Below are positions 50,581 through 64,000 of a stretch of 64,000 nt of DNA, piece by piece. A program made the position numbers and the translations under genes. How positions within the stretch are numbered: position 1 is the stretch's first letter; each line of letters starts with the position of its first letter. The notes below the pieces were generated by a model. That model saw only the letters and a list, made by a program, of their open reading frames with translations. It ran no database searches and was not told the DNA's origin. The DNA comes from Macrostomum lignano. Taxonomy: Eukaryota. The DNA is taken from NCBI GenBank assembly GCA_002269645.1, contig NIVC01001396.1, forward strand, positions 233,100 to 297,099. The letters run 5' to 3'.

Positions 50581-50996
50581 TCCTTGAAGTCGAGACACAG
50601 GGTATTCATTCAATGAAAGAATCTTTGCTCACAAACCAAAAACAACAGAATCTTTGCTAAAGAAACAACAGAAACTTGATACAATTGCGCAGCTGAGGGT
50701 CATCCATTTATTCTTGGCAGTCATTTAGAATGATTAATAATGATTTCCCTAGGACAATGTGGAAATAGAAAAGCAGACATGAGGAAGCAACGCTCTATAG
50801 GGGCCTACATGCATATGATGTATGGGGATATAAAAAACACAGACTAAATCGACTCTTACTTAATCTTTTGTGTTCGACAAAGAGTAGTCAAAGATGAAAT
50901 TGATCAGAAATTGCTTTTTTTCCTAATTCCTTAGTGGGATCGGTTCACTGTTCATATCTAATATGACAGCAGTTATGTAATTTAAGGTCTAATTAT

Positions 50997-51285
50997 GCAC
51001 GCGAAGGTGTATTCAGCACGCCAGTGAAGTATGAGACAGACCAGGCCTAAGGGCTACGGTCTGCGATGCTTCACGCCTGCCCCTATATTCAGCAGGTCAA
51101 GGCTGGAGAGGGAGGTCTGCACCCGCTATTTGCCACTGGCAGCCGCAGACCCCCCCCCTCACGCTGTTTCACAAGTCGACCCAGGGTACTCGTCCCCGCG
51201 TGTGTTCAAGGCAGACCCTAGGGCTGCTGGACAGACTGGGCTCCGACGCTGGCGACCCATCCAGTGGCTTCGGCCGAATTTGGGT
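50997..51285 (+). ncRNA. Candidate HDV-like self-cleaving ribozyme at the retrotransposon 5' end
   Basis: P1 GCACGCG (50997-51003) with CGCGUGU (51197-51203), G1-U wobble; P2 ACCCA (51179-83) with UGGGU (51281-85); P3 GGG/CCC; L3 UACUCGU; P1.1 AC/GU; CGAA at 51275-78. Manual fold only. Confidence 0.72.
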
Positions 51286-51468
51286 ATGCGGGTCTGGCTT
51301 GCCAGCCTGCAGGCCGTGGTACTGCTTAACGTACCCCCTAATGCCTAAGGTGTTTGACCGTGCCGATGGGCTGGAAGGCCGGGGGGTTGTCCGGTCGCTA
51401 GCGGTCCTTTTCTTTTTCTTCTTTCCTCTTTCTTTTGTGACTCAGCTCACTCCTTCCCGCTTTCAGCT

Positions 51469-52933
51469 ATGGCGTCATCCGCCTCTTTAACCCCCGCTGA
51501 AGCCGGGGCCCCGGCAACTCCGGCCGGTGACTCTGGCACCAGCGCCGCCCCACCGGGGGCAGATGGGCTTGCCGCCGGCTCGGCTGGTGACATGCCCGCA
51601 CGCGCAACCGGGCCCTCCGCTGAAGCCCGACGCACCCGCAACCAACGCCGCAACGAGCGGCGACGGCGACTACGGGTACTGCGGGCCGGCCACCGGCGGA
51701 AGGGGAACCTAGGGAGGGCGAGGCTGCTGTTGGGCCGAAAGGAACCACAGCAACCCCTGCCCCCAGGATACAACCCCCGCTGGTGAGCCACCCAGTATAC
51801 CTGCTACAAGCGCGGCCGGGCCTTCGGGAACCGCCGCCACCAACTACGCCTCAAAGGTCAAGCTCCAACCGGCGGTCATCGTCTTCGGGGAAGAGCAGGA
51901 CCTCACGGCCGACGAGCTCGACAGTGCCTGGCGCACCATCGATGCTGCGCTCATCGACCAGCTCCTGGCGGGCCGCCCTGTGAGCGTGGTCAAGTCTGCC
52001 AAGACCGACGGCTGCATCTTCATCTGGTGCAGCTCGGAGGAGAGCAGCCGCAATCTACGCGAGCTTCTGCCAAAGCTGAACTGGCCCAAGAAGCTCGGCA
52101 AGCTCGTCTTCGCCAGCGAGGGCGAACGACAGAAGACCCAGCGCTTTCGCGTCTGGATCCCGGCCGGCAGTGCCATTAAGTCCGGAGATCAGCTTAGGCA
52201 AATATTGCTAAAGCTGCACCCCGACCTTAAGGTCAACGGGCTCCTACACCACGCCACTTCCCGCAAGGAGAAGGGGGCTACGGTGATCCTAGGGCTCTCT
52301 GATGACTGGGCTAAGCGCTTGCCGCCTAAGTCCACAATTCATATTGGTCTGACTCAGCTGACCATCCTCCGTTGCGAGGAGCGGAAAGCTGATGAAGCCA
52401 AGAATGCCAAAGCTTCCGAAACCGGAACTGGGGCCCAGGCTCCTCCGGCAAAGAAGCCGAGGCAAACGGCCGATCCTATGCCCGGTAAGGCAGTTCGCGC
52501 TGCTGAAACCGGAAATCGCAATCGCAGACCCGCCAGGAGCACCCGGAGGTCCGGCCTGATCCAGCGCGCGCTGGACCAGGCCAAGAACCTTCGTGCGCAT
52601 CGTGAGCGGGCCCGCGCTTCTCGCGCTCCACCCCAACAGCCAGAAGGCCAGACTCTAAGCGGGGAGGCTCCGACCGACTGGTTCGAGTCTGTGACTCACC
52701 AGGAGGCTGGCGCCACCCGCATCGACCTGACCGACGAGGCAGAGGGGACGGGCAGTGACAGCACCGAAGCACGCAGGAGAGGCGACGGTAACGTCCACGC
52801 TGGGCTCACGTCCGCGGAGGACTCCACAGCCACCCTAACTGCTGAGGACGCTGAAACTCCCATGGAGGTCTGCGGGTCACCCACCACTGAAAAGGAGGAG
52901 GATGACCTGCTCAACGATTCCCCAACTGCGTGA
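51469..52933 (+). CDS. Retrotransposon ORF1 (gag-like), split by a single +1 frameshift near 51754-51778
   Basis: ATG ORF 51469-51786 overlaps an open second frame 51713-52933. Removing one base from a C run (e.g. 51760-51764) gives 487 aa including NYASKVK...IVFGEEQDL...DGCIFIWCSSEES. No CCHC knuckle seen. Confidence 0.7.
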
Positions 52934-52935
52934 TA

Positions 52936-55900
52936 ATGATCAGCAACCAGGGAATCCATTGCCTGCAGATTAATCTGCAGCACTGCGTCGCAGCCTCGGT
53001 CAACCTTATGCGTTACGCCGAGCTCGACAAGCCGGGGCTCATCCTCGTCCAGGAACCCTGGACTCTCAGAGGTAAGCCTCAAAACGCCCCTGCTGGCTAC
53101 AATTGTTTTTATACTTACCCTCGCGAGGCCAACCAGCCTCCCAGAGCTTGCATCTTTGCGAGCAAAACGCTCAGTGCGTGGCTCAGATCGGACCTGTCCA
53201 ACAGGGACATCTGCGTCATCCAATCCGAGGACCTTCTTCCTGGGAAGACCACCCTCATTGCCTCGGTTTACCTACCAGGCGATGCTGCGGTCGTCCCCAG
53301 AGCCCTCGCTACGCTGGTAGAGCTCTGCTCTGCCAAAAACTACGAGCTCATGGTTGCCGGCGACATCAACGCCCACCACACTCACTGGGGCAGCACTGGC
53401 ATTAATCAGAGAGGCGAAGACCTCCTAGCCTACGTTGCCTCTACGACCCTCGAGTTCTGCAACTCTGGGTCCACCCCTACCTTTGACAACGGACGGTGGT
53501 CGGAGGTGATCGACGCTACGCTCGCAACGCCCAGACTCTACCAGAGTATTGGGGCGTGGCGGGTGCTTCCAGTGTCCTCACTATCGGATCACAAGTTCAT
53601 CTCCTTCAACCTAATGGCCGCGCGTAGCGCAACTCGTGTTATGTGGAGACGGAACGCCAGAAATACGGATTGGGAAACCTTCGGGCTCGCCCTGAAGGAA
53701 TTCCATCGGTCTCCTGGCCAACCATCCACGATCACGTCGTGCCGAGAGGCGGATGAGTGCGCGACTGTTTTGACAGAGACGCTAACCGCCGCCTTTGAGG
53801 CGTCCTGCCCTTTAAAAGCCTATAAAGGGAAAAAATCGGCGCCGTGGTGGAATCCCGAGCTCGGCAACCTCCGTCGCAGGGCTAAGAGACTCCACCGCAG
53901 AGCAACTAAAACTAAGAGCCCTGCAGACCAAACCGCCTATCATGAAGCAATTCATGAGTTTAAAAGGCAGGTTAGGAATGCAAAGGCTCAAAAATGGCGA
54001 CAATACTGTGAGGAGCTAGAGGGCTCACGCCCCACCTCCAGAGTTGTGAAAGCGCTCACGCTGGACAAAATGTCTAAGCTCTCCTCGGTCAAACGCACCG
54101 ACGGTACGTCCACGGACAACCCAGGGGAAACGCTTGATGTAATGCTCACTGCGTTTTTCCCTAACGAGCCAGCTAACCAGACCACTCCGGATCACTCGGA
54201 GGGAGGTCACGCGCTGGCTGCATCTATCATCACGGAGGACCGCATTGTGAGAGCGGCAAATTCCTTCAAGCCTTTCAAAGCCCCAGGACCCGACGGCATT
54301 GTACCGGCCCTTCTAAGAGAGGCGGTTAAATGCCCAGGCTTCCTGCGCAAACTTTGCAGCCTTCTTCGGGCATGCATCACGCTTGGTTATGTCCCGCAGG
54401 CATGGACCGAGGCAAAGGTGATCTTTATCCCTAAGCCAGGCCGCCCGGACTACCATTCTATCAAATCCTTCAGACCGATCAGCTTGACCTCCTCCCTGGT
54501 CAAGCTGATGGAGAGACTGGTGCTTTGGCGCCTTCTCTCTGTTGAGCTGAAGAACAAACCTCTCAGCGAGAACCAGCACGCTTTTCGGGCGGGTCGCTCC
54601 ACTGAAAGCGCGCTGCACGTCCTGGTCGATAAACTCGAGAAGGCCGTGCTTGGTAGTGGCTTTGCTCTGGGGATCTTCCTGGACATCATTGGCGCCTTCG
54701 ATAACGTCCTCTTTGAGGCGTTCCGAAGAGCTCTTTGTGAGAGGCTAACGCACTCACATCTCACCAGATGGATCATGTACATGATCAGCCATCGCACGGC
54801 CACCGCCAGTCTGCTGGGCTACCAGAGGACGGTCCCCGTCTGCAAAGGTAGCCCGCAAGGTGGGGTGCTGTCTCCAGTTCTCTGGAATATGGTCATCGAT
54901 GAGCTCCTCCGGGATGTTCGGCCTGACCCCATTCTGAAAGTTGGATATGCGGACGATGTCACCGCGGTGGCATCTGGTCCGTCCCCTGATACCCTCAGGG
55001 ACCTTCTTCAGAACTTCATCTACGCTGCTGAGCAATGGGCGGACCGCTGTGGTTTAAGGCTCTCTGAGACTAAGACCGCAGCGATCATGTTCACCAGCAG
55101 GACCAAGTGGCAGATTCGGCCGCTCACGCTTTACGGAAGGGAAATCCCCTTCTGCAAGCAGACTAAATGTCTGGGTATTACCCTGGACCACAGGCTGAAC
55201 TGGTCTCCCCACGTTCAAACAAAAGCCAAAAAGGCCTTCGCAGTCCTCGCGCAATTGCGCAGGGCCGTCGGCACCACCTGGGGGCTCACCCCCAAGCGCC
55301 TCTGGTGGATCTACACTGCAATGGTTAGGCCCGCTATCTCGTATGGCGGCCTGATCTGGGCTAGCGCCCTGCAGATAAAGACCTGTCTAGAGGCTCTCAG
55401 GAGAGCGCAAGGGCGCGCTTGTCGCACGATCATGAGCGCCCCTCCGTCTGCTCCTTACGATGGCCTCAACGCCTTCCTCAACATTCCTCCGCTGGACATC
55501 TTTGTCCGCAGGGAAGCGGCTAAGACTGCCCGCCGTCTAGCTGACGCTGGCATTCGAATCCAGCCCCATAGGGCCATGGCTAAGCGCAAGCTTCTGCCCC
55601 ACGCTGACCTCTGCCTCAAGGACTTGAGAGACAGCGGCGGGCTCCACGTCCTATCTGACGGCGAACCCCGCACTCTCAACCTCTTTCAGCGCTACAAGGT
55701 CACCATCCCCTCTAGGGATGCTGCCAATGACCACTGGAATTTCCAGGAGGTCCATTGCTACACGGACGGATCCATCAAAGACGGTCGCGCCGGCTTTGGG
55801 GTCTGCATCATCATCAACGGCCGCGTAATTGCCACGCATGCCCAGCACACTGGTAGACTCTCCACAGTCTTCCAGAACGAAGTCCTTGCCATCAGCTCTT

Positions 55901-56640
55901 GCGCTGCAGAGCTAAACGCCAAGGTTACGAGAGGAAAGACTATTGTCATCCACTCCGACAGCCAAGCGGCCTTACAGGCCCTTTGCCACACCACAACGAA
56001 CTCCCGGACAGTCGCCGACTGCGCCCGGCAGCTCAACCTCCTGGCCAGAAGCAATACTGTCAGGCTGAAGTGGATCCCAGGGCACGCAGGGTTTCCGGGG
56101 AACGAGCTGGCAGACACCCTCGCCAAGAGGGGCGGCTCTGGCTCTTTTTTCGGCCCTGCCCCCCTGGTCCCTATGCCCTTGACAGTCATCAATCGTCAGA
56201 TCGACGACTGGGCTGACTCCCTCCACAGGGACAGATGGGCGGGCACCCAAAACTGCCGGCAATCTCGTGCCGCGGTTCCTTGCCCGTCTCACAGGCTCAG
56301 AAACATCCTTCTGAACCAGAATCGGAAGGATATTCGAGCCCTTGTCATGACCCTTACCGGCCATGGCTACCTCGCCAGGCACTGCTTCCTCCGAGGCGAC
56401 CTCGAGAGCGAAATTTGCCCCTTTTGCGAGTGCGACAATGAAGATGCTCAGCACTTTGTCTGTCACTGCCCTTTCTTTAACAGAGACCGGCTACGCTACC
56501 TCGGGCCGAACCCGTCCATTGACGAGGTTTGCCAGCCCGACAGCATCCCACGGCTCATCCAGTTCCTTCGGGCGACTAGACGAGCCAGTTTCTTCCCAAC
56601 GGAAGATCACGCTGCAGGACGGACCGGCGGACCACCCTGA
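52936..56640 (+). CDS. Retrotransposon ORF2: AP endonuclease, reverse transcriptase, RNase H, CCHC finger (1234 aa)
   Basis: QINLQHC, LVQEPW, AGDINAHH, SDH (APE); KAPGPDG, FRPISL, PQGGVLSP, YADD (RT); YTDGS, SDSQAAL, WIPGHAGFPGNELAD (RNase H); C-x2-C-x8-H-x4-C. No stops or frameshifts. ATG at 52936 (the track starts at an upstream GTG). Confidence 0.95.
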   Translation: MISNQGIHCLQINLQHCVAASVNLMRYAELDKPGLILVQEPWTLRGKPQNAPAGYNCFYTYPREANQPPRACIFASKTLSAWLRSDLSNRDICVIQSEDLLPGKTTLIASVYLPGDAAVVPRALATLVELCSAKNYELMVAGDINAHHTHWGSTGINQRGEDLLAYVASTTLEFCNSGSTPTFDNGRWSEVIDATLATPRLYQSIGAWRVLPVSSLSDHKFISFNLMAARSATRVMWRRNARNTDWETFGLALKEFHRSPGQPSTITSCREADECATVLTETLTAAFEASCPLKAYKGKKSAPWWNPELGNLRRRAKRLHRRATKTKSPADQTAYHEAIHEFKRQVRNAKAQKWRQYCEELEGSRPTSRVVKALTLDKMSKLSSVKRTDGTSTDNPGETLDVMLTAFFPNEPANQTTPDHSEGGHALAASIITEDRIVRAANSFKPFKAPGPDGIVPALLREAVKCPGFLRKLCSLLRACITLGYVPQAWTEAKVIFIPKPGRPDYHSIKSFRPISLTSSLVKLMERLVLWRLLSVELKNKPLSENQHAFRAGRSTESALHVLVDKLEKAVLGSGFALGIFLDIIGAFDNVLFEAFRRALCERLTHSHLTRWIMYMISHRTATASLLGYQRTVPVCKGSPQGGVLSPVLWNMVIDELLRDVRPDPILKVGYADDVTAVASGPSPDTLRDLLQNFIYAAEQWADRCGLRLSETKTAAIMFTSRTKWQIRPLTLYGREIPFCKQTKCLGITLDHRLNWSPHVQTKAKKAFAVLAQLRRAVGTTWGLTPKRLWWIYTAMVRPAISYGGLIWASALQIKTCLEALRRAQGRACRTIMSAPPSAPYDGLNAFLNIPPLDIFVRREAAKTARRLADAGIRIQPHRAMAKRKLLPHADLCLKDLRDSGGLHVLSDGEPRTLNLFQRYKVTIPSRDAANDHWNFQEVHCYTDGSIKDGRAGFGVCIIINGRVIATHAQHTGRLSTVFQNEVLAISSCAAELNAKVTRGKTIVIHSDSQAALQALCHTTTNSRTVADCARQLNLLARSNTVRLKWIPGHAGFPGNELADTLAKRGGSGSFFGPAPLVPMPLTVINRQIDDWADSLHRDRWAGTQNCRQSRAAVPCPSHRLRNILLNQNRKDIRALVMTLTGHGYLARHCFLRGDLESEICPFCECDNEDAQHFVCHCPFFNRDRLRYLGPNPSIDEVCQPDSIPRLIQFLRATRRASFFPTEDHAAGRTGGPP

Positions 56641-56884
56641 CCGGCCCCACGCCTCTGCCTGTCTGCGGGCCTTCAGGGGCTAGCGGAATGGGCGACCCTC
56701 GCCTCCCCGCTGTGTCTACGGACCACCCTGCAGCTAAGTCAAGTCAAGGTCTAATTATAGCTGACATTGCTTTGCTCTTTGAGCGAGCTTTGTTCAAGGC
56801 TATTCTATTGCTATTCTGAATTAGCAGTGGGGACTGGCATTATCTCCGCTCCTAGCTCTCTGTATGCATTGTTCATGTACTGTC

Positions 56885-58355: not shown

Positions 58356-58383
58356 ATCAATCAATCATTCAATCACTTCTCAG

Positions 58384-61118
<2,735 letters not shown>

Positions 61119-63322: not shown

Positions 63323-64000
63323 TTCAGCTTCTTTCATATAACTAATAGAAAAAATATGCCTGAAGTAAGTACGTTGAAATGCTGACAAAGCAAAAGATTT
63401 ATTTATGCTGAAGGTTTATTTTTTCATACTATAATTACAAATAAATAAAAACACTAAATAGAAAATACGACGAAAAATATTTTATTTATTTTTATGAAAT
63501 AACTACAAAACTTTGTTATTCTTTAACAAAACGTTATAAAGTACGGAATAAGTTGAAACCTAAATTGCTAGTATTCCGCATTGGGACGAAAGTTACAAAT
63601 TGCTTAGTCGCTTAAGAGCCCTGACTCGAAGAAAGATCGATTTTTATTATAAATTCATATTAATTTATTGCGTTCATTAAATTTGACTTTCTTAATTAGT
63701 AGCTAATCCTAAATTAGTCTAAAAACTGAAGATTTTTGATTGCACGAGGAGATATTTTTAATATCTTCTTGATATTTTGTACCTGTAATACAAAACCAAC
63801 ATTCACGTATTACGTTGCTAGTATCCTTGTAGAATCCTCAATTAAATAAATGAAAGATTTTTTAATTGCACTAAAATATTGATTTTTTGTGAATGGAACA
63901 GTAGGACAGTAGTAGCAAAAATCCTGAATATATATTTACTACAAAAACACCGTAAAGCACCGGAGATAAATTTGTCTTAACTTCAAGATTAACAAATTTC

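Follow-up and report, generated by a model that had tools for sequence, protein, structure and literature searches.

Organization of the family A retrotransposon

The window analysed here is a 64,000-nucleotide stretch of Macrostomum lignano DNA, and the nearest named proteins belong to the same species. Its forward strand carries a full-length non-LTR retrotransposon of 5.7 kb (50997..56745), termed family A, whose limits and content were established from target-site duplications, exact copy counts and Pfam domains. The element is flanked by identical 13-bp target-site duplications (50984..50996 and 56746..56758) and ends in an (AAGTC)2 tail (56736..56745). ORF1 (51469..52933) encodes 488 residues in intact copies and is readable in 19 of the 30 family A copies that are best by similarity; in the window copy the frame is broken, and the ATG frame stops after 105 codons. 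Comparison of ORF1 with Pfam returned a weak match to DUF4780 with an E value of 0.016, under the cut-off. ORF2 (52936..56640; 1234 residues) contains APE endonuclease, reverse transcriptase and RNase H domains. The presence of two ORFs, the second with an APE-RT-RNase H arrangement, is that of a LOA-type or I-group LINE. On the resemblance of this RNase H-containing layout, family A is a putative LOA-type element, the relatives of ORF2 carrying no clade names.

Exact matching across the genome assembly (G000) identified 93 family A ORF1 starts and 146 ORF2 3' ends. Together with examples of truncated copies, this difference shows that 5'-truncated copies integrate; the 5' module is thus dispensable for insertion, and an RNA whose 5' end had been replaced by a spliced leader (SL) should be copyable. 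In one family A copy the truncation falls 16 nt upstream of the point where the ORF1 exon begins, adjoining a candidate branch A. The same truncated copy sits in the apparent pol region of another element and has multiplied with it (L259-L261, L263, L266-L268, L270). It represents a single event; that reverse transcription halted at a branch point is conceivable, with nothing to support it.

Three host genes were noted in the window. A forward-strand PSMC3-like proteasome ATPase gene at 58383-61118 lacks its first 108 residues and is either a truncated paralogue or the result of an assembly break. The idea that the window copy lies within an intron of this gene was set aside, as the window nowhere encodes those 108 residues. 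On the reverse strand, genes at 63360 and ~43497, which we take to be CFAP418-like and DEGS1-like, respectively, each carry an acceptor upstream of the start codon, which would make them suitable positive controls for SL addition.

The element's 5' end is predicted to fold as an HDV-like ribozyme

Pairings read from the sequence arrange the first 289 nt of the element (50997..51285) into a predicted HDV-like ribozyme fold. P1 comprises 7 bp (50997-51003/51197-51203) and starts at the putative cleavage site, the 5' end of family A, with a G.U pair. A nested double pseudoknot is formed by P2 (5 bp in family A, 51179-51183/51281-51285), P3 (3 bp, 51184-51186/51194-51196) and P1.1 (2 bp, 51188-51189/51204-51205), with P4 starting at 51206. 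The 5' strands of P1 and P2 are separated by a long J1/2 that contains a 175-nt insert. The candidate catalytic C, C51275, is the first letter of a CGAA (51275-51278) that is followed by two extra U ahead of P2; its catalytic role in J4/2, with the adjoining purine run, is presumed by analogy with HDV ribozymes.

Twenty-six of 30 family A copies begin exactly at the first G of this fold (50997). The pairings are nearly invariant across nine aligned sequences from family A and its sister families B and C, copies too alike to lend the fold any support from covariation. Pair probabilities for P1 are 0.90-0.97 when the fold ends at 51205 and 0.01 in the pseudoknot-free fold to 51285. A scan with Rfam at gathering score gave 0 matches, which the long inserts may explain. 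Our model is that the element's 5' end is an HDV-like ribozyme with predicted self-cleavage. The premise of an HDV-type ribozyme in the original prediction is supported to this extent, as the predicted fold starts at the first base of the element, with cleavage as a prediction.

A pyrimidine tract and a splice acceptor precede ORF1

Upstream of ORF1 is a 57-nt tract containing 50 pyrimidines (51408..51464), the long form of which is specific to family A. Within it are two motifs with a putative branch role, TGACTCAG (51438-51445) and CTCAC (51446-51450), which in fold prediction can alternatively form a 4-bp hairpin (51438..51450). The tract runs into TTTCAG (51461-51466), which is followed by CT and the ORF1 ATG (51469-51471). 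The AG at 51465..51466 is a 3' splice site with an exon start at 51467, as seen in the joint of one RNA contig described below. The description that had drawn attention to this site, a tract of ~60 nt with branch-like motifs, TTTCAG and CT-ATG, is borne out by the sequence.

When ranked by pyrimidines in the upstream 40 nt, the site ending at 51466 is second among the 319 YTNCAG sites of the window, and after mononucleotide shuffling of the 5' UTR an equally good site turned up somewhere in the sequence in 7 of 20,000 trials, so that the tract and AG exceed what chance would give. Both are identical in 30 of the 30 best copies, which bears out the conservation that had been proposed as a check, but these copies were chosen by similarity and are ~99.5% alike, and thus say little about selection. 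At position -3 of the 93 exact ORF1 starts the base is C in 91 and T in 2, the latter being TAG variants with a normal tract.

The original prediction named a GTATGC at 51284 as the only donor candidate upstream. This proved incorrect, since four more GT sites (51007, 51096, 51200 and 51350) match U1 at 6/9 positions, better than the 5/9 at 51284, which falls within a P2 strand of the predicted ribozyme. None of the GT[AG] sites in the family A 5' UTR is the species' GTRAG donor. The AG has two features expected of an outron acceptor: it fits the M. lignano trans-acceptor motif [T/C]TNCAG and has no canonical donor upstream. According to the sections of the SL study drawn on here, this motif is also that of ordinary acceptors, and for trans-splicing it is enough that an unpaired acceptor lies close to the 5' end (PMC8629364). 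Splicing at 51467 would remove the five upstream AUGs of the family A 5' UTR.

The AG is used as a 3' splice site in cis

RNA joints at 51467 were sought in four runs, all of them Logan contigs and none raw reads. A single contig, from one of the four runs (X14, which is only guessed to be RNA), has 26 foreign letters ahead of 51465 on its short side, in a joint that enters the element at 51467. These letters match three genomic places, at each of which an exon end is followed by GT; from its translation we take this host exon to be aldehyde dehydrogenase (ALDH)-like. At one of the three places (L066, G000:C1870:23000-32500) a family A copy in sense orientation occupies the next intron, so that the donor of the ALDH exon and the AG of family A, 2,063 nt apart, delimit a GT-AG intron. 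The other two ALDH-like gene copies are without a family A insertion in the 9.5 kb inspected. The AG at 51465-51466 thus functions as a spliceosomal 3' splice site, at least once and in cis, as observed in one contig with a GT donor.

In runs X1, X2 and X4, contigs read straight through the AG, indicating that the unspliced form is present. None of the matches listed for the four runs joins an internal GT to 51467. A joint 51408>51645 in X4 (depth 4, ends TT..CA) was rejected as it is not GT-AG and is likely a sister-family artefact. There was likewise no SL joint at 51467 among the listed matches. The RTE control, a second LINE family described below, was equally blank in the same four runs, which means that the contig assay cannot see such joints. 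Of the joints at 51467 anticipated by the original prediction, the one found thus attaches a host exon in cis; the missing SL joint comes from an assay that is blind to it. Neither of the two variants with a base other than C at -3 among the 93 ORF1 starts is a host-exon join.

Two sister families share the 5' module and differ at the AG

Loose ends in the contigs of the four runs pointed to two further families, and alignment revealed that the 5' module of ~410 nt (50997..51407) is common to three LINE families, A, B and C, with ~91-95% identity in their full-length matches. The 93 copies of family A, 61 of family B and 259 of family C nearly account for all 419 exact matches of a word from the module. 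ORF1 is far less alike: that of family B is ~50% identical to the ORF1 of family A, and that of family C ~35%. The occurrence of a module over 90% identical with divergent ORF1s suggests, from sequence comparison, recent swapping of a ribozyme module between families (50997-51407; L069-L126). In family C, the most abundant of the three, a 473-residue ORF1 is readable in three of eight sampled copies.

Families A and B both end in CTTT(T)CAGCT-ATG. Family B keeps CCCGCTTTTCAGCT-ATGGC without the long tract, and has YAG in 19 of 20 sampled copies. The 18-nt block at the AG that is kept between the two families, CCCGCTTT(T)CAGCT-ATGGC, has persisted despite ORF1s that are only about half identical, which points to selection on the block and is the best point in favour of the original prediction. 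Family C, by contrast, ends in CCTTTTATC-ATG, a C/U run followed by ATC or ATA and then the ATG, and no AG occurs in the last 17 nt before the ATG in the 25 loci inspected, some of which are the same place. Since family C lacks the AG, the feature common to the three families is the C/U run and not the AG. In families B and C the place of the tract is taken by hairpins and, after them, a short C/U run; the hairpin just ahead of this run carries a bulged G, and family A keeps a 4-bp remnant of it. The tract starts exactly where the families diverge, a position at which family B has a T run of variable length.

Spliced leader copies in the genome

The genome contains 58 exact matches to the M. 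lignano SL, as given in the part of the published study that reports it (PMC8629364). In 20 of the 48 matches inspected, a GTAAG donor directly follows the SL, as in SL RNA genes. The premise that the host performs SL trans-splicing is therefore well founded, as its genome carries SL RNA genes identical to the published SL.

Twelve of the 48 inspected matches lie at an apparent LTR 3' end (L037-L045, L065, L133, L135), and in L042, L044 and L133 a PBS-like stretch and an ORF resembling gag come after the SL. It seems that the terminal repeat of an LTR retrotransposon has captured a copy of the SL. Other dispersed copies are joined to unidentified sequence (L046, L047, L049, L127, L129, L139, L141, L143) and are possibly retrocopies of trans-spliced RNAs.

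A further eight of the 48 run into an element of a family unrelated to family A (L177-L206, L215-L258), which encodes a single ORF of 1037 residues with APE and RT and without RNase H. Its SL-joined copies have (TTG)n tails at four of eight loci checked. By its ORF and short-repeat tail we place it near the RTE clade and refer to it as RTE-like. All 80 starts of this family were inspected, and eight are SL-joined, with six distinct flanks; the eight are a lower bound, as long arrays hid the 5' end in some copies. In one further copy the SL is joined at a downstream AG. At its 5' end the RTE-like family has a 17-nt unit, terminated by TTTGCAG, that is repeated in tandem, with 0 to 77 units in the copies counted (SL and array loci L145/L036, L146/L048, L128, L130, L134, L136, L050, L131 and L238). 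In the main family the last base of the SL exon abuts the base after an element AG, at three different AGs; in a sister form the sequence that the SL adjoins lies upstream of the element. Exact SL joints after AGs fit trans-splicing better than template switching. Together these copies indicate at the sequence level that RTE-like LINE RNA has been trans-spliced and then retrotransposed in M. lignano. Many other copies start at a G just ahead of a unit; this G could stem from copying of a cap or belong to the AG. No ribozyme-like 5' region was seen in this family, and clean target-site duplications were not found around its SL-joined copies. SL trans-splicing may replace both promoter and ribozyme here.

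Family A starts are not joined to the SL

If family A RNA were SL-capped, it should sometimes be copied by its own reverse transcriptase and leave SL-joined copies in the genome. The pattern used for family A catches any base except C at position -3 of the ORF1 start. None of the 93 genomic ORF1 starts is SL-joined (upper 95% bound 3.2%), as opposed to 8/80 in the RTE-like control, whose SL-joined copies demonstrate that such fossils are visible in this genome. The difference gives a Fisher p of 0.002 on raw counts and of 0.03 on an assumed de-duplication (0/60 vs 6/66); the 93 copies are not independent, as among 16 further copies inspected 8 have a flank in common and derive from one truncated insertion spread inside another element. 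For family B, a gapped SL-to-start pattern yielded no SL-joined start genome-wide; its 36 matches were unrelated, and the family C start lies outside its coverage. A B-start pattern, too short in that most of its matches were chance or tandem repeats, yielded none among 100 of 148 matches listed, 38 of them with an acceptor.

The SL ends in AUG, and its addition at 51467 would create an 8-codon out-of-frame reading over the ORF1 start. Out-of-frame SL AUGs occur at RTE-like joints as well, which makes this a weak argument against SL addition at 51467.

How is ORF1 of family A expressed?

The observations allow several accounts of the tract and AG. The one towards which the evidence inclines us, with some hesitation, is that the tract is a C/U-rich stretch before the ORF1 start, that ORF1 is expressed mainly from unspliced ribozyme-cut RNA and not from SL-capped RNA, and that the AG traps exons. 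The ribozyme would cut the element out of host read-through RNA, and the cut, uncapped RNA would serve as both template and message. ORF1 translation would proceed by cap-independent initiation, as proposed for L1Tc, with help from the C/U run before the AUG. What families A, B and C would have in common is this run in unstructured form; the AG of families A and B would make it an exon trap, one that may take the SL at a low rate. We favour the unspliced route because family C has the same module and no AG, because no SL starts were found among the 93, because contigs cross the AG unbroken and because L1Tc RNA is reported to lack an SL. Against it stand the conserved block of families A and B, the gain of a long tract by family A, the absence of a canonical donor upstream, the five upstream AUGs that splicing could remove, and the non-independence of the 93 copies. 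The A-B block also weighs against a neutral origin, in which the tract is simple-repeat growth at the seam between module and family-specific sequence and the AG an inherited accident. Such an origin would account for a tract that begins exactly at the point of family divergence, for the variable T run of family B at the same spot and for a window rich in simple repeats, but the tract length is invariant in 30/30 copies, and we regard it as improbable.

Under the model of the original prediction, ribozyme-cut RNA would be regularly SL trans-spliced at 51467 and only the unspliced RNA would be reverse-transcribed. Its premises hold, and much is in keeping with it: the AG matches the trans-acceptor consensus of the species and is competent for the spliceosome, no GTRAG donor lies upstream, the block is kept between families A and B, retroelement RNA of the RTE-like family receives the SL in the same genome, and the Cer1 retroelement, in the portion of that work cited, sets a precedent with a long RNA that stays unspliced and a subgenomic one spliced to SL1 (PMC3315495). 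The analysis yielded no positive evidence for re-capping; against it stand the comparison of 0/93 with 8/80 and a family C that has no AG. The 5' module is dispensable for insertion, as truncated copies demonstrate. The model calls for an extra mechanism to bar SL-capped RNA from reverse transcription; no SL loose end appears among the matches listed for the four runs, in an assay that failed its RTE control. We consider regular re-capping unlikely, while granting it a real chance. As the main route for family A it is likely not in use, with moderate evidence against it, and if this family uses the SL, it probably does so to a small extent or in RNA that is not reverse-transcribed. A selected role of the AG in cis-splicing, whereby intronic copies would express ORF1 behind a capped 5' exon taken from the host gene, has on its side the only splice actually observed and the same A-B block. 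That splice is one contig from 1/4 runs, neither -3 variant of the 93 is a host-exon join, and family C again lacks the AG. Moreover, if the host exon is coding, ORF1 would come after another reading frame, and a ribozyme that acts fast would presumably cut the intron beforehand. This makes selection for cis-splicing the least likely of these accounts.

A broader idea, about as doubtful as regular re-capping and if anything a little more so, is that Macrostomum LINEs use the host SL machinery in two ways: in families A and B the ribozyme would free the RNA, the AG would take the SL for the message and the reverse transcriptase would copy the ribozyme-ended form, while the 17-nt array of the RTE-like family would let the SL both release and cap the RNA.

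Comparison with known elements

We know of no splice acceptor in the 5' UTRs of the R2, RTE and LOA/Baggins ribozyme elements. Their HDV-like ribozymes, described by Ruminski et al. 2011, reportedly process 5' ends from host co-transcripts, a likeness to the role predicted here.

A closer parallel is the HDV-like ribozyme at position +1 of the trypanosomatid LINEs L1Tc and ingi, Pr77, whose activity was tested according to the parts of these reports used here (PMC3383444, PMC4035085). The same source describes L1Tc RNA without an SL in trypanosomes, whose mRNAs arise by trans-splicing (PMC3383444). As far as these excerpts extend, the systems share a fold at nucleotide +1 of a LINE, a trans-splicing host and a module common to several families, as well as an uncapped RNA with proposed cap-independent translation, predicted here from sequence. 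Pr77 is 77 nt, whereas the family A fold is 289 nt with its J1/2 insert and a predicted cleavage, and a strong acceptor 2 nt before ORF1 in two of three M. lignano families sets these apart from the L1Tc/ingi elements of those excerpts. Cer1 of C. elegans, with its SL1-spliced subgenomic and unspliced long RNAs, gives the two-RNA idea a precedent among retroelements; unlike family A it is an LTR element, the cited portion mentions no ribozyme, and trans-splicing spares its gag-pol RNA (PMC3315495).

In parasitic flatworms, SL-bearing LTR and LINE loci have been tentatively derived from trans-spliced transcripts, and the sections cited give neither junction-level proof nor 5' anatomy (PMC12582326, PMC5832876). 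To judge from those sections, these loci match the RTE-like family, while family A is without such copies; the RTE-like family differs from them in its exact SL-exon joints at several AGs and its tandem acceptor array. Among the listings and passages that our literature search covered there was no ribozyme-plus-outron system and no tandem-acceptor LINE; work on NeSL-1 and Terminon, the Ruminski papers and SL-site supplements may bear on this.

Implications

Family A is a variant of the HDV-ribozyme 5' ends of LINEs, with a functioning splice site whose AG lets intronic copies trap the exons of host genes. The translation of retrotransposon RNA that a ribozyme has cut and left uncapped is an unsettled matter, and M. 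lignano provides a natural comparison in three LINE families with a common ribozyme module, of which two have an acceptor ahead of ORF1 and one has none. The species is also amenable to transgenesis and has public SL-read data. The tandem-acceptor 5' array of the RTE-like family is a firmer result and a stronger lead than re-capping in family A, and this family, with its SL-joined copies, merits study of its own.
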